Shown here in pieces: positions 1-9,483 of a stretch of DNA of 11,684 nt. The position numbers were made by a program, and so were the translations under genes. The stretch lies in the UHGV virus genome UHGV-1583584. One strand, given 5' to 3'. This DNA is from a virus. Numbering within the stretch: the stretch's first letter is position 1; the number at the start of each line of letters is the position of its first letter. Under the pieces are notes generated by a model that did no database searches, was not told where the DNA came from, and saw only the letters and a list, made by a program, of their open reading frames with translations.

Positions 1-148
1 CAAAGAACCTTGCAGAGGCGTTCGAGCATTATAACGAATGGCATCCGCATAGTGCACTGGGTTATCGCTCGCCACGGGAATATCTACGGCAGCAAGCCAG
101 TAATGGGTTAAGTGATAACAGGTGTCTGGAAATATAGGGGCAAATCCA
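1..148 (+). mobile_element. IS2 insertion sequence, right end (partial; element continues left of the window)
   Basis: The + strand frame starting at base 3 encodes a transposase C-terminus, and the sequence up to about 148 ends in GGGGCAAATCCA, which I recall as the IS2 terminal sequence. Immediately after, the minus-strand integrase reading frame loses lambda Int similarity. Confidence 0.75.
3..137 (+). CDS. insD: IS3-family (IS2) transposase OrfB/InsD, C-terminal 44 codons (5-prime end outside window)
   Basis: Translation of 3..134 gives [44 protein letters not shown], stop TAG at 135-137. This matches my memory of the IS2 InsD C-terminus ([15 protein letters not shown]...[11 protein letters not shown]). 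Confidence 0.75.
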
Positions 149-890
149 CATGCAATGCTGTTGGGATGGCAATTTTTACGCCTGTTTTGCTTTGCTCGAC
201 ATAAAGATATCCATCTACGATATCAGACCACTTCATTTCGCATAAATCACCAACTCGTTGCCCGGTAACAACAGCCAGTTCCATTGCAAGTCTGAGCCAA
301 CATGGTGATGATTCTGCTGCTTGATAAATTTTCAGGTATTCGTCAGCCGTAAGTCTTGATCTCCTTACCTCTGATTTTGCTGCGCGAGTGGCAGCGACAG
401 GGTTTGTTGTTATATGGCCTTCAGCTATTGCCTCTCGGAATGCATCGCTCAGTGTTGATCTGATTAACTTGGCTGACGCCGCCTTGCCCTCGTCTATGTA
501 TCCATTGAGCATTGCCGCAATTTCTTTTGTGGTGATGTCTTCAAGTGGAGCATCAGGCAGACCCCTCCTTATTGCTTTAATTTTGCTCATGTAATTTATG
601 AGTGTCTTCTGCTTGATTCCTCTGCTGGCCAGGATTTTTTCGTAGCGATCAAGCCATGAATGTAACGTAACGGAATTATCACTGTTGATTCTCGCTGTCA
701 GAGGCTTGTGTTTGTGTCCTGAAAATAACTCAATGTTGGCCTGTATAGCTTCAGTGATTGCGATTCGCCTGTCTCGGCCTAATCCAAACTCTTTACCCGT
801 CCTTGGGTCCCTGTAGCAGTAATATCCATTGTTTCTTATATAAAGGTTAGGGGGTAAATCCCGGCGCTCATGACTTCGCCTTCTTCCCAT
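149..890 (-). pseudogene. int: Lambda-type tyrosine integrase Int, truncated after about residue 247 by the IS2 insertion
   Basis: The first 247 residues of the 108..890 ORF (MGRRRSHERRDLPPNLYIRNNGYYCYRDPRTGKEFGLGRDRRIAITEAIQANIELFSGHKHK...KIAIPTALH) are nearly identical to lambda Int as I recall it. The C-terminal 13 residues ([13 protein letters not shown]) are read-through into IS2 sequence. The catalytic C-terminal region (His308, Arg311, His333, Tyr342 in lambda Int) is missing. Confidence 0.9.
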
Positions 891-1086
891 TTCTGATCCT
901 CTTCAAAAGGCTACCTGTTACTGGTCGATTTAAGTCAACCTTTACCGCTGATTCGTGGAACAGATATTCTCTTCCATCCTTAACCGGAGGAGGGAATATC
1001 CTGCATTCGCGCACCCATCGACGAATTGTTTCAAGGCTTCTTGGGCGTCGCTGGCGAGCGTTCCACTCCTGAAGTGTCAAGTACAT
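868..1086 (-). CDS. xis: Excisionase Xis (lambda-type)
   Basis: The 72-aa product MYLTLQEWNARQRRPRSLETIRRWVRECRIFPPPVKDGREYLFHESAVKVDLNRPVTGSLLKRIRNGKKAKS matches lambda Xis as recalled. Its 3-prime end overlaps the int start (890), as in lambda. Confidence 0.95.
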   Translation of the reverse strand: MYLTLQEWNARQRRPRSLETIRRWVRECRIFPPPVKDGREYLFHESAVKVDLNRPVTGSLLKRIRNGKKAKS

Positions 1087-2596: not shown

Positions 2597-3352
2597 TTAA
2601 ACTGCTAGTTGCAATTGCATTTCAAAGCGGTCGCGTTGTTCACAATACGCAAGAGAACCAGGGCTATTGTGTGCCTCAATCCGTTCTACCATTAATGCTG
2701 CGCGTGTCTCTTTACTTGCAGGTGCATAAGCCCCAGACCAGGCTTTATCAATACCGATGTTTCGAGCGACGTTCGTACTATCTGCGCTGGCTAAGGGTAA
2801 TTTTGTGAATATCAGCGGATTTAACATGCGCAATCCATGTAGTTTCGTAACCAGCTGACCATGCCCATCAACAATGTGACGAATCAGGTCTTTCATTCTG
2901 GCTACCGCAAGAGTTGGGCGCTTTACGTCATAGTCGCCACAACTACCGATAGCCACTCGCGGAAACTCATTGCACAAATGAATAAATCGCTCGTCACTTT
3001 CATTCATGTGCCACACTGGAACGCCAGCTAGTTTTCCGTGAGGCCACTCATTCAGAAGCGCATCATTTTCCTCCTCTCCGCCATCAATAACATCCGGGAT
3101 AATGGCAAAATCGAATCTTGGGTGATTCTTCCAGCGAGCAACAAACTCGTAGTAATCGCTCCAGTCGATTTTGTTTTTGCCAGCTGCTTTCCAGGCGGTG
3201 AATGCACCGTTGTCCAGCGCGAACGACTGACAGTATTCAGCCGCGAGATTGATCTGGCCTGAATGCGCAAAACTGATAAACGCATGTCGCCCTTTCCATG
3301 CTCTCATTGCGCACGTATCAGGAGTAATAGGCCCACCGTGGTAGTGAATCAT
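2597..3352 (-). CDS. Putative TGT-fold (tRNA-guanine transglycosylase-like) protein, candidate DNA 7-deazaguanine transglycosylase (DpdA-like). Function is tentative.
   Basis: The six-frame ORF is 2597..3394, but the strong SD AAGGAG sits 7 nt upstream of the Met at 3352 (MIHYHGGPITPDT...), one nucleotide after the Ea22-like stop. A co-linear motif pattern resembles TGT family landmarks as I recall them from E. coli Tgt: ALDNGAF vs LTDSGGF, IIPDV vs MIFDE, VAIGSCG vs AVGGLAVG, KLHGLR vs YLMGVG, ADSTNVARN vs FDCVMPTRNARN. There is no CxCxxC...H zinc subdomain. Similarity is motif-level and not verified by search. Confidence 0.6.
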   Translation of the reverse strand: MIHYHGGPITPDTCAMRAWKGRHAFISFAHSGQINLAAEYCQSFALDNGAFTAWKAAGKNKIDWSDYYEFVARWKNHPRFDFAIIPDVIDGGEEENDALLNEWPHGKLAGVPVWHMNESDERFIHLCNEFPRVAIGSCGDYDVKRPTLAVARMKDLIRHIVDGHGQLVTKLHGLRMLNPLIFTKLPLASADSTNVARNIGIDKAWSGAYAPASKETRAALMVERIEAHNSPGSLAYCEQRDRFEMQLQLAV

Positions 3353-3353
3353 C

Positions 3354-3761
3354 TCACTCTCCTTTGATGCGAATGCCAGTAGCGCGGATTGCATCGATGA
3401 CTTCAGAAACTTTGTATGCCATTACCGTTTGGTAATCATCGTGAAAATCTGTTCGATGAAGCATGCTGCTACGTTCCGGGAGCAGTATTTCCCGCGCTTC
3501 CAGTTCTGCAATGCGCTTTTTTGCTGCTTCCAGTTCATCCAGTAATTCCAGCACGGTAGCCGGATTAGCCTTGGCAACAAAATCCCGGACTGGCTTACAA
3601 TCAATCTCCGCAATGGGTTGATACGATGTGTAGCCATGCTGTCTTGTATAACTACCGTGACGAATAACGAAAAAATCACCATTTATTTTTTTAGCCTGCC
3701 ACTTATCTTCACCGGCTTTCTCTGCCGCTTCACGCAGTGCCTGAGAGTTAATTTCGCTCAC
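3354..3761 (-). CDS. ea22: Ea22-like protein (mosaic: lambda-like N- and C-termini, different central region)
   Basis: The N-terminus MSEINSQALREAAE and C-terminus GIRIKGE match lambda Ea22 as recalled. The central part differs and the protein is shorter (135 aa vs 182 aa in lambda). Confidence 0.8.
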   Translation of the reverse strand: MSEINSQALREAAEKAGEDKWQAKKINGDFFVIRHGSYTRQHGYTSYQPIAEIDCKPVRDFVAKANPATVLELLDELEAAKKRIAELEAREILLPERSSMLHRTDFHDDYQTVMAYKVSEVIDAIRATGIRIKGE

Positions 3762-4561: not shown

Positions 4562-4722
4562 ACAGCTCCCCGTTTATTATTTATCTCCTCAGCCAGCCGC
4601 TGTGCTTTCAGGGGATTTCTGATAACAGAAAGGCCGGGAAATACCCAGCCTCGCTTTGTAATGGAGTAGACGAAAGTGATCGCGCCCACCCGGATATTAT
4701 CGTGAGGATGCGTCATCGCCAT
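4534..4722 (-). CDS. Small lambda early-region protein (orf60a-like), immediately downstream-adjacent to exo
   Basis: 62-aa ORF overlapping the exo stop region, in the same arrangement as lambda orf60a. Confidence 0.65.
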
Positions 4723-5393
4723 TGCTCCCCAAATACAAAACCAATTTCAGCCAGTGCCTCGTCCATTTTTTCGATGAACTCCGGCACCATCTCGTCAAAA
4801 CTCGCCATGTACTTTTCATCCCGCTCAACCACGACATAATGCAGGCCTTCACGCTTCATACGCGGGTCATAGTTGGCAAAGTACCAGGCATCTTTTCGCG
4901 TCACCCACATGCTGTACTGCACCTGGGCCATGTAAGCCGACTTTATGGCCTCGAAACCACCGAGCCGGAACTTCATGAAATCCCGGGAGGTAAACGGGCA
5001 TTTCAGCTCAAGGCCATTGCCGTCACTGCATAAACCATCGGGAGAGCAGGCGGTACGCATACTTTCGTCGCGATAGATGATCGGGGATTCAGTAACATTC
5101 ACGCCGGAAGTGAATTCAAACAGAGTTCTGGCGTCGTTCTCGTACTGTTTTCCCCATGCCAGCGCCTTAGCATTAACTTCCGGAGCCACACCGGTGCAAA
5201 CCTCAGCCAGCAGGGTGTGGAAGTAGGACATTTTCATGTCAGGCCACTTTTTTCCGGAGCGGGGTTTTGCTATCACATTGTGAACTTCTGAAGCGGTGAT
5301 GACGCCGAGCCGTAATTTGTGCCACGCATCATCCCCCTGTTCGACAGCTCTCACGTCGATTCCGGTACGCTGCAGGATAATGTCCGGTGTCAT
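4713..5393 (-). CDS. exo: Lambda exonuclease (Red alpha), 5-prime to 3-prime dsDNA exonuclease
   Basis: The 226-aa product [40 protein letters not shown]... is essentially identical to lambda Exo as recalled. Confidence 0.97.
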
Positions 5394-6175
5394 GCAGCCA
5401 CCTTCTGCTCAGTGGCTTTCTGTTTCAGGAATCCAAGAGCTTTCACTGCTTCGGCCTGTGTCAGTTCTGACGATGCGCGAATGTCGCGGCGAAATATCTG
5501 GGAACAGAGCGGCAATAAGTCGTCATCCCATGTTTTATCCAGGGCAATCAGCAGAGTGTTAATCTCCTGCATGGTTTCATCGTTAACCGGAGTGATGTCG
5601 CGTTCCGGCTGACGTTCTGCAGTGTATGCGGTATTTTCGACAATGCGCTCGGCTTCATCCTTGTCATAGATACCCGCAAATCCGAAGGCCAGACGGGCAC
5701 ACTGAATCATGGCTTTATGCCGTAACATCCGTTTGGGATGCGACTGCCACGGCCCCGTAATTTCTCTGCCTTCGCGGGTTTTGAATGGTTCGCGGCGGCA
5801 TTCATCCATCCACTCGGTAACGCAGATCGGATGATTACGGTCCTTGCGGTAAATCCGGCATGTACAGGATTCATTGTCCTGCTCAAAGTCCATGCCATCA
5901 AACTGCTGGTTTTCATTGATGATGCGGGACCAGCCATCAACGCCCACCACCGGAACGATGCCATTCTGCTTATCAGGAAAGGTGTAAATTTCTTTCGTCC
6001 ACGGATTAAGGCCGTACTGGTTGGCAACGATCAGTAATGCGATGAACTGCGCATCGCTGGCATCACCTTTAAATGCCGTCTGGCGAAGAGTGGTGATCAG
6101 TTCCTGTGGGTCGACAGAATCCATGCCGACACGTTCAGCCAGCTTCCCAGCCAGCGTTGCGAGTGCTGTACTCAT
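5390..6175 (-). CDS. bet: Bet (Red beta) single-strand annealing protein
   Basis: The 261-aa product [48 protein letters not shown]... matches lambda Bet as recalled. Its start overlaps the exo stop region. Confidence 0.97.
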
Positions 6176-6180
6176 CCGTT

Positions 6181-6477
6181 TTATACCTCTGAATCAATAT
6201 CAACCTGGTGGTGAGCAATGGTTTCAACCATGTACCGGATGTGTTCTGCCATGCGCTCCTGAAACTCAACATCGTCATCAAACGCACGGGTAATGGCTTT
6301 TTTGCTGGCCCCGTGGCGTTGCAAATGATCGATGCATAGCGATTCAAACAGGTGCTGGGGCAGGCCTTTTTCCATGTCGTCTGCCAGTTCTGCCTCTTTC
6401 TCTTCACGGGCGATCTGCTGGTAGTGACGCGCCCAGCTCTGAGCCTCAAGACGATCCTGAATGTAATAAGCGTTCAT
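6181..6477 (-). CDS. gam: Gam, RecBCD inhibitor (98-aa short form)
   Basis: [60 protein letters not shown]... matches lambda GamS as recalled. Upstream DNA resembles lambda but the reading frame for the 138-aa long form is not open here. Confidence 0.95.
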
Positions 6478-6552
6478 GGCTGAACTCCTGAAAATGGCTG
6501 TGAAAATATCGCCCGCGAAATGCCAGGCTGATTAGGAAAACAGGAAAGGGGA

Positions 6553-6759
6553 TTAGCGATTCAGGCCGTTACCGCGTCCGTCGAGAAAAACTTCCACGAG
6601 CAAATCACGGGTATAAGTGCGCTCGATGCCGCGATGCAGATAAAGCCGTCCGCGTAAATTAGCTGATGCAGTCCAGGTACCATCTTTGTGTTTGACCAGC
6701 ATTCCTGGCATGACCGCACCTCGATTAACGGTCTGCGTTCCGTAATGTTGATGAACCAT
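6553..6759 (-). CDS. Hypothetical protein, first gene downstream of the candidate pL, in the position of lambda kil/N but unrelated in sequence. The start is uncertain.
   Basis: The six-frame ORF extends to 6963 with a TTG start and no SD. Internal ATGs with good SDs are at 6759 (AGGAG 5 nt upstream, product [14 protein letters not shown]..., 68 aa) and at 6711 (GAGGT upstream). The C-terminus ...[18 protein letters not shown] is not lambda Kil (recalled as MDQTLMAIQTKF...). Confidence 0.45.
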
Positions 6760-7036
6760 AAAAACTCCTGCCCGTAAGCTGGGCTGCTGAACATATAGAG
6801 ACTTCTGCGCGTATTCAGGCGGTGGATGGCCGCCGGTTGTCATAACTAAGTCGCCTCGTTGAAGCGACTGAGGTATGAAGTGTTGAGTTGATTTCAGCTG
6901 GTCACACCGACGTTCACGCGTCCGCTTCACCCCTCGCACTCCCCGAAGCCTGCTGAAATTCAAACTGCGGATCTAAGCGGTCATCGCAACGGTGAAACAG
7001 GTGGTTACCGTATCGTTGTGTCGTTGCGATGAATTT

Positions 7037-7110
7037 ATTTAAAACTGTAGTTGTTTTATCGTCAACAACAAAAGTTGTTTTGTCGGTTGTTTTAAATATA
7101 ACTGGTTGTA
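7037..7110 (-). promoter_or_regulatory. Candidate pL promoter with oL operators
   Basis: On the minus strand: -35 TTGACG (+ coords 7060-7065), 17-nt spacer, -10 TTAAAT (7037-7042). The spacer contains the 17-mer AAAACAACTACAGTTTT (7041-7057), 15 of 17 identical to AAAACAACCATAGTTTT in the pR spacer (8595-8611). Further GTTGTT/AACAAC repeats lie at 7064-7080 and 7085-7110. Confidence 0.5.
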
Positions 7111-7205
7111 TTTAGGATGGATTTATTTTGTGACTTGCATCGCATAGCGATAACTGAAGTGAGGTGTGGTGGTTTTTTGGACGGTATGAGTTATGAGGGG
7201 GAGGA

Positions 7206-7236
7206 AAAGAAAACCCGGCGCGGTTGCCGGGTATGA
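7206..7236 (-). terminator. Rho-independent terminator after the lipoprotein gene
   Basis: Minus strand immediately after the stop at 7240: CCCGGC-aaccgc-GCCGGG followed by TTTTCTTTTCC. Confidence 0.6.
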
Positions 7237-7239
7237 TTA

Positions 7240-7620
7240 TCAGTCAGCCCAACCTGATTTCGAGTTTATTTGGGTTTCTGACATTGTGTATTTCTTAATC
7301 GTGTCATCGTTAAAAAGAATAGTAAGTTCTTTTTTCGTACCGTTCGTTCCATTATGGAATAATCCATAGAATGGAATAAAAGTGGTGCCATTAACTTTTA
7401 CTTTTGCAAAGGCGTACTTCCAGATCTCGTTTCCACTGTCAGTATATGAAACAGCATCAGGAGAACCAAAGTAAGATTTAACCTCATTCTTGGTTGTTTT
7501 ACCTTCCTGAAGTTTAGACTGGACACTAATTTCAGTTTCATTTTTGAGTTGCTGGTTGCCTGAAGAAGCACACCCAGCCAATACAGATGCCATCATGGCA
7601 GCGATTAGGATTTTTCTCAT
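7240..7620 (-). CDS. Prophage-encoded lipoprotein (signal peptide with lipobox LAGC); possible BamE/SmpA-OmlA-like fold; candidate lysogenic-conversion or superinfection-exclusion factor
   Basis: The N-terminus MRKILIAAMMASVLAGC has a canonical lipobox, with Ala at +2 after the Cys (no Asp inner-membrane retention signal). The mature part has a pattern resembling BamE (GxTKxEV...GSP...WxY...LTILFxxDxIKxY), which is a motif-level impression only. The gene is AT-rich relative to its neighbours and is followed by a terminator. Confidence 0.8.
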   Translation of the reverse strand: MRKILIAAMMASVLAGCASSGNQQLKNETEISVQSKLQEGKTTKNEVKSYFGSPDAVSYTDSGNEIWKYAFAKVKVNGTTFIPFYGLFHNGTNGTKKELTILFNDDTIKKYTMSETQINSKSGWAD

Positions 7621-7849: not shown

Positions 7850-8539
7850 TTAACCATGCTTCCTGTACGTCTGCGGCATGCTTCCAATGACCTTACCGAA
7901 TATGAACACCCGGTTCATCTCGTCTTTCTCGATCGGGTCCCACGGCGAGTAGCTCTTGTTATCAGAGATAACCAGCAGCTTATCCTTCATCATTTGAAGA
8001 CGTTTTACATGGGCAGTGTCGTCGTACAGAAACGCATAGATGCCATCACCGTCGAAAGATTTAACAGTGATATCAACGAACAGCAGGTCACCTGGTTCGA
8101 TCGTCCCTGACATGCTGTCACCTCGCACGTTAATGATGCGGATATTTTCCGCCTTCCTGCCATCGAACATGTGACGAGCATCGTCAAACGAGTACTCAAC
8201 CGAGCGTAGAACTTCTACAAACTCACGGTTGATTACACCTGGCCCGGCACTGACTTCTATATCAAGAACGTCAATTTTGAAGTATTTGGAATGGCTGACA
8301 GTTGATTGTATTGGTTGCACTGTACTGTCTGACATATTTCCAACGCCAGAAGATAACCATTCTGCGCGCACACCCAAAGCGTTCGCGATCTCCACGATTT
8401 TAGTTGTTTGGTTAGCTTTCCCTGTTTCGATTTTCTGAATAGCAGCCTGGCTAACCCCGACCAAATCCCCAAGCGCCTTTTGTGTAAGGCCTCGCGCTAA
8501 TCTGGCTTCTTTAAGTCTTTCTGAGAGTGTTGTTTTCAT
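7850..8539 (-). CDS. cI: CI-type prophage repressor (N-terminal XRE-family HTH, C-terminal LexA/S24-like autopeptidase domain)
   Basis: The N-terminus LKEARLARGLTQKALGDLVGVSQAAIQKIETGK is a typical HTH. The C-terminus contains GDSM (Ser nucleophile motif) and VKRL (Lys), with a candidate Ala-Gly cleavage site in EVSAGPG. It is transcribed divergently from the cro-like gene. The sequence differs from lambda CI, so this is a different immunity type. Confidence 0.9.
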   Translation of the reverse strand: MKTTLSERLKEARLARGLTQKALGDLVGVSQAAIQKIETGKANQTTKIVEIANALGVRAEWLSSGVGNMSDSTVQPIQSTVSHSKYFKIDVLDIEVSAGPGVINREFVEVLRSVEYSFDDARHMFDGRKAENIRIINVRGDSMSGTIEPGDLLFVDITVKSFDGDGIYAFLYDDTAHVKRLQMMKDKLLVISDNKSYSPWDPIEKDEMNRVFIFGKVIGSMPQTYRKHG

Positions 8540-8545
8540 AGATCA

Positions 8546-8616
8546 AATGTACAACCAAGGTTTTATTTCATCAAACGAAAATGGTTGTTGACTAAAAACA
8601 ACCATAGTTTTAATCT
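8546..8616 (+). promoter_or_regulatory. oR operator cluster with pR (and divergent pRM presumably within the same region)
   Basis: pR: -35 TTGACT (8588-8593), 17-nt spacer, -10 TAATCT (8611-8616), then SD GGAGG (8634-8638) and the cro-like ATG at 8644. Three related 17-bp dyad-type sites: about 8548-8564 (ACAACCAAGGTTTT), 8576-8592 (AAAATGGTTGTTGAC) and 8595-8611 (AAAACAACCATAGTTTT). Confidence 0.6.
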
Positions 8617-8643: not shown

Positions 8644-8874
8644 ATGAACCCAGCAATCAAAACAGCGATCAATATCGTTGGTTCACAAAAGAAACTAGGC
8701 GATGCCTGCGAAGTTTCACAGCAGGCCGTCTATAAGTGGCTTCACAACAAAGCAAAGGTATCCCCTGAACATGTCGGCAGCATTGTTACGGCTACTGGTG
8801 GAGTTGTGAAGGCATACCAGATTCGCCCGGATCTTCCGAAGTTGTTTCCACACACCGAAAAGAACGCAGCTTAA
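8644..8874 (+). CDS. Cro-like HTH regulator of the YdaS type
   Basis: The 76-aa product, first rightward gene from pR, contains GSQKKLGDACEVSQQAVYKW...VSPEHVGSIVTATGGVV, resembling the YdaS/Cro-like family pattern as I recall it. It is not lambda Cro. Confidence 0.75.
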   Translation: MNPAIKTAINIVGSQKKLGDACEVSQQAVYKWLHNKAKVSPEHVGSIVTATGGVVKAYQIRPDLPKLFPHTEKNAA

Positions 8875-8943
8875 ATTTCCATTTCACGCTCTTTAACAAT
8901 AAGCAATCAACTTAACAGTCAATTCAAACTAAAGGAGTCAATT

Positions 8944-9483
8944 ATGCAACCACTTACATACCAACAGACTAGCGGATTTATTCCGACTGCGGTGATAAAT
9001 CGTTCTCAAACAAAACAAGCTCCAGGCCACGAAAAAATCCGTGATGCCGTCCGCGCCTGGTCGGCTGTAGATAATCAGGATGTCGTTGCCGCACTCATTG
9101 TGAATGAGTATCGGGAGCAGGGCGACGGCACCATCGATTTCCCTGATGATGTCAGCCGTGCACGCCAGAAGCTGTTCCGCTTCCTCGATAACAAATTCGA
9201 TTCTGAAAAATACCGAAATAACGTGCGTGAACTGACCCCGGCAATTCTGGCGGTACTACCGCTGGAATATCGCGGTTACCTGGTTGAGCAGGATAGCTTC
9301 ATGACTCGGTTGGCTGAAATGGAAAAGGAACTCAGTGAGGCAAAACAGGCTGTCATTCTCAACGCACCACGCCACCAGAAACTGAAGGAAATGAGTGAAG
9401 GTATTGTGTCGATGTTTCGTGTGGACCCGGATCTGGCTGGTCCATTAATGGCGATGGTGACCACCATGCTGGGGGCAATATGA
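8944..9483 (+). CDS. YdaT-like protein in the cII position (function uncertain: regulator or toxin-like)
   Basis: 179-aa ORF with SD AAGGAG 5 nt upstream. The segment LTPAILAVLPLEYRGYLVEQD resembles the YdaT family core as recalled from the Rac prophage ydaS-ydaT pair. It is not lambda CII (97 aa). Confidence 0.6.
   Translation: MQPLTYQQTSGFIPTAVINRSQTKQAPGHEKIRDAVRAWSAVDNQDVVAALIVNEYREQGDGTIDFPDDVSRARQKLFRFLDNKFDSEKYRNNVRELTPAILAVLPLEYRGYLVEQDSFMTRLAEMEKELSEAKQAVILNAPRHQKLKEMSEGIVSMFRVDPDLAGPLMAMVTTMLGAI

Follow-up and report, generated by a model that had tools for sequence, protein, structure and literature searches.

A predicted 5'-terminal stem-loop may protect the early-left transcript of an N-less lambda-like phage carrying a Rac-type kil gene

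The stretch of 11,684 nucleotides (nt) from virus genome UHGV-1583584 analyzed here, referred to as the window, contains the early region of a lambda-like temperate phage. This report concerns positions 6553 to 7110 on the minus strand and, within them, an inverted repeat at the head of the early-left transcript, here called hairpin 1. The interval is the early-left promoter pL with its operators oL and the 271-nt untranslated early-left leader of an N-less lambda-like temperate phage, followed by kil-gam-bet-exo. Its elements are listed in the direction of transcription.

7213-7232, minus strand: intrinsic terminator at the end of the cI-lipoprotein transcript, ahead of pL (a stem of 7 pairs including 6 G-C, then TTTCTTTT)
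7050-7093, minus strand: oL operators, three AAAACAAC repeats (7093-7086, 7081-7074, and 7057-7050)
7037-7065, minus strand: pL promoter, with -35 TTGACG (7065-7060), a 17-nt spacer, and -10 TTAAAT (7042-7037), read from the sequence and alignable with pR
7030, minus strand: predicted transcription start, an A that is the 7th nt past the -10 hexamer, placed by promoter geometry
6981-7032, minus strand: hairpin 1, predicted 5'-terminal stem-loop of the pL transcript, with core 7031-7023 paired with 6982-6990
6900-6980, minus strand: G-rich leader segment (38% G), specific to this Escherichia coli prophage group
6870-6899, minus strand: C-rich, G-poor variable linker with UCAAC repeats (C/G = 5)
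6849-6869, minus strand: hairpin 2, recognized by covariation, with a conserved apical UUC..GAG
6818-6848, minus strand: AU-rich spacer UUAGUUAUGACAACC, then hairpin 3 (GGCGG-CCAUCCA-CCGCC, 6834-6818)
6760-6963, minus strand: arginine-rich upstream extension of the kil open reading frame (ORF), classed as non-coding leader by its frame breaks and absence of codon bias
6765-6769, minus strand: Shine-Dalgarno sequence AGGAG of kil, with 5-nt spacing to ATG 6759
6553-6759, minus strand: kil, encoding a 68-amino-acid cell-division inhibitor of the KilR family, as judged by PHROG 294, the match to Rac KilR, and PGAP

The pL/oL region (7037-7094, minus strand) closely mirrors pR/oR, with the alignment extending over GTTGTTGAC..AAAACAAC..AGTTTTAA; the pR hexamers (TTGACT-17-TAATCT) align with those of pL, and a search for direct and inverted repeats paired the oL repeats with 8573-8613 at oR. 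A palindrome at oL, AACAAC-TTTT-GTTGTT, overlaps the -35 hexamer. The placement of pL in the first-pass annotation of this DNA, together with its hexamers and 17-nt spacer, can thus be read directly in the sequence, and the alignment of pL with pR and the three operator repeats bear out its statement that the operators match those at oR. Its description of the promoter as a convincing sigma-70 promoter is sound as to hexamers and spacing but too strong as to the -10 hexamer, which is off consensus at position 2; because the consensus A is missing there, pL was not called by a consensus promoter scanner. Five promoter types were found upstream of the leader, and each places the end of its -10 hexamer exactly 6 nt ahead of AU(C/U)(G/A)C; since this distance is constant in every promoter set, the predicted +1 coincides with the first base of the stem. 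The predicted start at 7030 also agrees with lambda pL RNA, which starts AUCAGCAGG.

Close relatives of this DNA are common. Phage PhiR26_1, which forms plaques and grows on E. coli K-12, is 99% identical to the window over 6400-7300, and Lambda_4C10, 4A7, Perceval, and others are 91-96% identical over the same interval, while the segment 6553-7110 (leader and kil) was found in 2239 of 5426 complete E. coli genomes (~40%). Leader homologues were collected from IMG/VR, yielding 118 copies with 91 unique sequences, which are termed the relatives below.

The arms of hairpin 1, TCATCGCAACG (7032-7022) and CGTTGCGATGA (6991-6981), form a perfect 11-bp inverted repeat with a 30-nt loop, just as first described, and folding of the leader RNA, which the first-pass annotation had called for, gave -20 kcal/mol with z = -2.98 for the repeat. 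Perfect 11-bp repeats with loops of 3-60 nt are expected 0.17 times per window and are present in 13% of shuffles, so the repeat alone is not significant, and its reality rests on conservation and position. The core of hairpin 1 is paired in 86 to 91 of the 91 relatives, although this conserved core comprises only 8-9 bp; the innermost pair of the repeat is formed in 15/91 and the outermost in 42/91, both being particular to the window's subtype. The frequent changes within the core, C>U at 7031 (46/91) and A>G at 7030 (22/91), both retain wobble pairs. The promoter/operator set in front of the leader varies, with at least five represented, and the core is preserved with at least four such types, always starting at the predicted +1. 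Because the core persists across promoter types and the homology break-points between prophages fall at ~7029, hairpin 1 is evidently part of the leader, with which it moves, rather than of the immunity module.

These observations bear on two accounts in which the repeat would not act as RNA. It could be a palindrome without function, arising by chance or hitch-hiking at the junction where the immunity and kil modules recombine. The frequency of such repeats in shuffled windows is consistent with this, as are prophage homology break-points at both ~7029 and 6996, a mismatch tolerated by PhiR26_1 (see below), and the conservation of the first bases, AUCG, in lambdoid pL transcripts generally, even where no hairpin follows. 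However, the core of the stem persists next to four operator sets that are unrelated to one another and in almost every one of the 91 variants, while the loop that it encloses has strongly diverged, and we consider a repeat without function unlikely. Alternatively, the repeat could be a DNA site for a dimeric protein, either an extra operator or a site for a host factor, made of two 11-bp half-sites 41 bp apart. The arms do contain GCAAC/GTTGC, resembling the ACAAC/GTTGT operator half-sites of this phage, but the same repeat stands beside repressors of other specificity (ATAGCAAT-type operators), and the tolerated variants are of the G.U type, which preserves RNA pairing but not DNA symmetry. 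A protein-binding palindrome, one of the possibilities raised initially, is in our view very improbable.

Compared to the third codon positions of kil, whose diversity is 0.059, the loop of hairpin 1 shows a diversity of 0.11 and is the most variable part of the leader, which fits a purely structural role for the hairpin. An inner stem predicted inside the loop of the window is absent from most relatives. The pairing is thus kept while the loop varies. In each of the five promoter types, the predicted +1 is where the stem begins (about 0-4 nt was the limit applied, and the start is itself a prediction), so that the earlier suggestion that the leader opens with a hairpin at about +1 holds for the predicted start; counting from that position, the first nucleotide has a pairing probability of 0.85 in four of the five types. 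No U-tract follows hairpin 1, the tail reading CCGCUUAGAUCC, and a terminator scan did not list it; an intrinsic terminator or attenuator at this position was rejected because the stem is not directly followed by a U-tract.

The only conserved property of hairpin 1 is thus the pairing of the extreme 5' end, which fits a 5'-terminal stabilizer stem-loop. Under this reading, the first 8-9 nt of the pL transcript would pair with a segment ~40 nt downstream, the message would start with a flush 5'-terminal stem-loop whose loop sequence is irrelevant, and the inverted repeat would act as RNA, shielding the early-left mRNA against the 5'-end-dependent decay pathway of RppH and RNase E. Stabilizers of this kind, the ompA type, were reportedly described by Emory, Bouvet and Belasco in 1992. 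The resemblance lies in a stable hairpin 0-2 nt from the 5' end, given the predicted start, and in a stem that matters where its sequence does not. By analogy with them, we tentatively favor a 5'-terminal stem-loop that acts on mRNA fate and protects pL mRNA, and we give this a little less than an even chance of being correct.

Several points weigh against this reading. The 3' arm was fixed by the search pattern used to collect the relatives, so hairpin 1 had no way of showing two-sided covariation. In PhiR26_1, which is viable, the 3' arm (near position 4930 of its record) reads CGTGGCGATGA instead of CGTTGCGATGA, and the resulting A.G mismatch midway along the stem is uncompensated; in an O157-type variant, hairpin 1 is down to 5 pairs; and the leaders of kil homologues in other genera give no reliable flush fold at the 5' end. 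In addition, 7030 is a predicted start, and transcription beginning a few bases further upstream would leave a single-stranded 5' tail. A last point is the presence of terminator-like hairpins inside the leftward operon ahead of xis and int (4652-4630, 4057-4039, 1363-1343, 1332-1313, and 1136-1117); as there is no N to overcome them, a role in antitermination stays alive. The hairpin at 4630-4652 is in an orf60a homologue, about where lambda tL3 lies.

Family searches detected no N-like family among the ORFs of the window, and no N is annotated in the complete genome of PhiR26_1, which has Q; cIII, ea10, and ral are likewise absent between pL and gam. The absences first reported for these four genes are therefore confirmed, and with N missing (in PhiR26_1 from the whole genome), so is the conclusion that delayed-early transcription is handled unlike in lambda. 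The further proposal that the repeat could be a nut- or put-like element found no support. With CGCTCTTA / GCTCTTTAACAA as queries, no boxA match at ≤3 mismatches was found in 6760-7035, and in 125 related loci the 6 kb following pL contain none; no boxB was visible by eye beside hairpin 1 or beside the boxA on the pR side described below, no dedicated boxB model having been run. A put covariance model built from HK022 putL, HK022 putR, and HK639 putL gave its three training sequences 63-96 bits and detected put in another 19 contigs with scores of 52-92 bits, while its best score in the window was 2 bits (E > 3), with nothing in PhiR26_1 either. Short-word BLAST of the leader against the same three put sequences returned chance words only, and Rfam at permissive thresholds, applied to the whole window and to the leader alone, gave no relevant family. 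When the pR transcript was searched for another copy of the leader element, the sole match was AAUCAACUYAACA (12/13, E = 9). Altogether, a nut or put identity of hairpin 1 is unsupported by these sequence comparisons. A literature search on N-independent lambdoid phages found nothing about this prophage group.

On the pR side, CGCTCTTTAACAA at 8887-8899 (plus strand) is a 12/13 match to the rrn-type boxA and lies 13 nt after cro, the canonical position of nutR. It is invariant in all relatives with the window's immunity type, is absent from the other immunity types, and stands without an N gene. When the cro-cII spacer was aligned with lambda nutR/tR1, no homology except boxA was seen. The prophage anti-small RNAs AgvB/AsxR were rejected as candidates, since they map to the pR' moron site rather than to pL.

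Compared to the pL-nutL-N region of lambda, the window has the same kind of repressor-controlled leftward sigma-70 promoter issuing from the immunity region, with operators matching oR, a transcript starting AUC..., and an operon with kil-gam-bet-exo-orf60a/63/61. Unlike lambda, it has no N gene, no boxA was found in its leader, and nothing of boxB was seen there by eye; cIII, ea10, and ral are missing, Kil belongs to a different sequence family, and the transcript, from its predicted start, opens with a flush hairpin. The HK022 putL/putR and HK639 putL elements offer a parallel in that their host phages are N-less and the element stands right behind pL at the 5' end of the transcript; in HK639-like contigs, put also lies upstream of the same hairpin 2/3 motif that is found in the window. 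There is, however, no similarity by sequence or covariance model and no copy in the pR operon of the window, and whereas put consists of two irregular stem-loops, hairpin 1 is one simple stem with an unconstrained loop.

Downstream of hairpin 1, the leader changes character. The G-rich segment has a diversity of 0.032, again compared to 0.059 at kil third codon positions, indicating moderate constraint, and no homologues of it were found outside the group. The minimum free energy structure of the whole leader, computed from the single sequence, is not backed by variation (22 alleles keep the pairing and 26 break it). The linker at 6870-6899 evolves in a neutral-like manner (diversity 0.064), with a 5-nt TCAAC insertion in 4 variants, and is possibly a Rho loading site. 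Next come hairpins 2 and 3, which together have a diversity of 0.014 and are the most constrained part of the leader. Over 25 diverse contexts, 98.6% of the hairpin 2 cells are paired, compared to 36-55% when the partners are slid; 6 of its 9 pairs change on both sides, and its covariation score was reached by 0 of 500 shuffles. Hairpin 3 is invariant and has no U-tract in the window. Between these stable hairpins, UUAGUUAU resembles an RNase E site, which we offer as conjecture.

The hairpin 2/3 motif, overlooked in the first-pass annotation as was the boxA after cro, is shared by lambdoid phages infecting four genera (Escherichia, Enterobacter, Klebsiella, and Salmonella), with copies in L018 (2490-2540), L019 (1380-1425), and L020 (2505-2565); it is absent from Rfam and from the lambda region checked. 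Its usual place is immediately behind a strong intrinsic terminator at the end of N or of a variable cargo gene, and in put-type phages the put element is found further upstream of the terminator and motif. In IMG/VR contigs L151 (6155-6300) and L152 (8420-8563), an HK639-type put adjoins the motif directly, ~45 nt upstream of it, in the place occupied by the hairpin 1/G-rich module in the window. Positions 6879-6812 of the window, spanning hairpin 2, UUAGUUAUGACAACC, and hairpin 3, are homologous to a segment of phi80 just downstream of N and t-L1, to one of HK225 just upstream of kil, and to one of HK639 at the second annotated 'terminator'. Unlike in the window, where that stem is missing, a strong intrinsic terminator following N or a cargo gene precedes the motif in all three. 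Beyond hairpin 1, the leader is a mosaic in which a group-specific G-rich segment is followed by a C-rich unstructured linker and then by the widely shared hairpin 2/3 motif, the N/terminator module that elsewhere stands upstream of this motif being simply absent here.

In a different interpretation, the 5' ~140 nt of the leader, comprising hairpin 1 and the G-rich segment, would work in cis as a processive antiterminator RNA functionally analogous to HK022/HK639 put, modifying RNA polymerase for read-through of the terminators in this N-less operon. The window ORFs and the PhiR26_1 genome contain no N, and terminator-like hairpins lie in the pL operon ahead of xis and int. The module, located just downstream of pL at the predicted +1 of a phage without N, has the same position as put in L151/L152 (pL, put, TTTCATAC, hairpin 2) and, like HK022 putL (PMC9378689), forms the very beginning of the pL transcript, and its G-rich segment is moderately constrained. 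Conversely, the put covariance model scores ≤2 bits and sequence similarity is lacking; put contacts RNA polymerase via specific loops and bulges (PMC9378689), whereas the loop of hairpin 1 is unconstrained; no second copy is found downstream of pR; variation does not back the predicted structure of the G-rich segment; and within the leader itself no strong intrinsic terminator needs to be overcome. Since there is no N for the downstream hairpins and the leader module stands at the position of put, we retain a put analogue as an improbable alternative. That these first ~140 nt would constitute a previously unrecognized class of antiterminator RNA, replacing N/nut and put and reading through the hairpins between exo and xis/int, seems to us slightly less probable again.

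One feature of the hairpin 1 loop deserves separate mention. The hexamer AACGAU, at +14 to +19 (7012-7017, minus strand), is retained in promoter types A and B, whereas type E lacks it. In lambda, AACGAU is the element at pR' that induces the sigma-70-dependent pause. The hexamer also agrees with NANNAT, a pattern proposed for HK022 putL (PMC9378689).

The first gene behind the leader was described initially as an ORF unrelated to lambda genes, in an operon lacking kil. The ORF at 6553-6963 is present as described, with AGGAG at 6769-6765 ahead of ATG 6759, yet its product is recognizable. The 136-amino-acid translation matches PHROG 294, 'Kil protein for bacterial septation inhibition', with E = 1.8e-38, the match beginning only at about residue 60, and the 68-amino-acid form from ATG 6759 matches the same family with E = 1.7e-37 over residues 1-67. 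BLASTP aligned the shorter form with the characterized Rac KilR from Met1 to Met1 (E = 9e-13, 36% identity). The same 68-amino-acid protein is named 'phage encoded cell division inhibitor protein' in PGAP annotation, and the gene is labelled Kil or cell division inhibitor in related lambda-like phages and genomes. It is intact in 89 of the 91 relatives; its polymorphic sites are distributed over codon positions 1:2:3 as 7:13:40, and it is the first gene after pL, upstream of gam, with bet and exo further downstream. By these sequence matches, 6553-6759 is a KilR-family Kil of the Rac type, and the claim that kil is lacking falls. The start at ATG 6759 with AGGAG is upheld by the Met1-to-Met1 alignment and the intact gene in the relatives. 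The label "non-lambda" is not borne out, although the ORF is, as stated, unlike lambda Kil. No BLASTP alignment to lambda Kil was obtained and the window Kil has no Pfam match, and lambda Kil itself matches PHROGs 3924, 2461, and 2055 but not 294; nevertheless, the gene is annotated as Kil in lambda-like phages. Rac KilR blocks FtsZ-dependent division (PMC5793797, PMC12482147), and by analogy the Kil of the window would be an FtsZ/cell-division inhibitor.

The Rac prophage also suggests how such a gene could be held in check. Rac kilR is kept silent through NusG/Rho-dependent termination (PMC5793797), and like the window it places a long untranslated leader ahead of a toxic division inhibitor, its KilR being homologous to the window Kil (36% identity, same length class). 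The leader of the window could likewise be an attenuator that keeps toxic Kil low, with Rho/NusG, loaded at the C-rich linker or within the hairpin loop, terminating transcription; tuning would come from hairpin 1, which could yield its 3' arm to the G-rich segment. The 271-nt untranslated length, the neutrally evolving linker with C/G = 5, and an alternative pairing of 6996-6986 with 6937-6926 predicted by RNAalifold are compatible with this. However, the Rac leader is not homologous: the leaders of the window and of Rac kilR, whose 5' untranslated region gives the small RNA KilS, have only one 9-mer in common (E = 0.38), and Rac has an intrinsic terminator that forms KilS, of which the window leader has no counterpart. 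Moreover, kil stands directly behind pL in the window and is followed by the lambda Red genes instead of recET, the alternative helix is backed solely by one-sided, wobble-compatible changes, and the Rho sites are candidates chosen by composition. Attenuation of this kind is a doubtful explanation in our judgment.

Translation from the far upstream end of the same ORF was also considered. The frame from TTG 6963 is open in the window, where it reads RLRGVRGVKRTRERR, and would yield a 136-amino-acid protein whose arginine-rich N-terminus might bind RNA like N or Nun, a resemblance pointed out in the first-pass annotation. Among the relatives, though, the frame of the extension is open over its whole length in only 43/91; CAG>TAG at 6870 creates an in-frame stop in 33/91, and others carry indels of 1 nt or 5 nt. 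In the extension, codon positions 1:2:3 hold polymorphic sites at 12:9:14, with no third-position bias; TTG 6963 lacks a Shine-Dalgarno sequence; and alignment to PHROG 294 and KilR begins only at about residues 60-69. By these sequence criteria, the arginine-rich extension is non-coding, an artefact of an open frame, and the 136-amino-acid protein with its N/Nun-like N-terminus is effectively refuted.

Within this extension, ATG 6843 opens the peptide MTTGGHPPP, which in the window is in frame with kil and gives a 96-amino-acid form, so annotated in phage IdasGreatGrand. This ATG has no Shine-Dalgarno sequence, and its start codon lies within an extension of hairpin 2. In HK225, phi80, and HK639, the MTTGGHPPP frame is a separate ORF of 16-24 codons, often ending ...EVLY. 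Because its continuation varies in length (10 to 110 amino acids) and in sequence among phages, we rejected MTTGGHPPP as a conserved leader peptide; its first 24 nt were fixed by the search pattern.

The remaining genes of the window place the leader in its wider context.

108-1086, minus strand: integrase and excisionase
Between int/xis and exo, minus strand: accessory genes
4713-5393, minus strand: exo
5390-6175, minus strand: bet
6181-6477, minus strand: gam
7240-7620, minus strand: lipoprotein gene, with its own strong terminator at 7213-7232
7850-8539, minus strand: cI, of the S24-peptidase type
8644-8874, plus strand: cro, YdaS-type
8944-9483, plus strand: cII-like gene, YdaT-type
3' of the YdaT-type gene, plus strand: O, P, and ren

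The genes in the cro and cII positions (8644-9483, plus strand) are of the Rac YdaS/YdaT type (Pfam YdaS_toxin and YdaT_toxin) and are combined here with lambda-type O, P, and ren and with an S24-peptidase cI. The lipoprotein gene (7240-7620, minus strand) encodes 126 amino acids matching PHROG 3135, with a weak BamE-domain match under the Pfam cut-off, and it lies between cI and pL, a moron position like that of rexAB; related phages carry at this position, as cargo, either a SIR2-family protein or a 353-amino-acid protein together with an ASCH-domain protein. In the b-region of the leftward operon, a gene at 2597-3394 (minus strand) encodes a 265-amino-acid protein that matches PHROG 887, 'queuine tRNA-ribosyltransferase', and may be a DpdA-like DNA-modification enzyme.

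The N/nut system of lambda is the textbook model of processive antitermination, and here 2239 of 5426 complete E. coli genomes hold the leader-kil module of a lambda-like lineage that has no N and includes plaque-forming phages. The delayed-early expression of this lineage, including that of xis and int behind several terminator-like hairpins, is explained by no known element in the window. With the false leads removed, in that there is neither a novel protein nor an arginine-rich antiterminator, three RNA elements remain that can be mutated: the flush 5' hairpin, the hairpin 2/3 motif, and the consensus boxA after cro. Should hairpin 1 prove to be simply a stabilizer of mRNA, the finding would be an ordinary one, whereas a new class of antiterminator, if true, would mean that N/nut and put have been replaced in a lineage present in ~40% of complete E. 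coli genomes.

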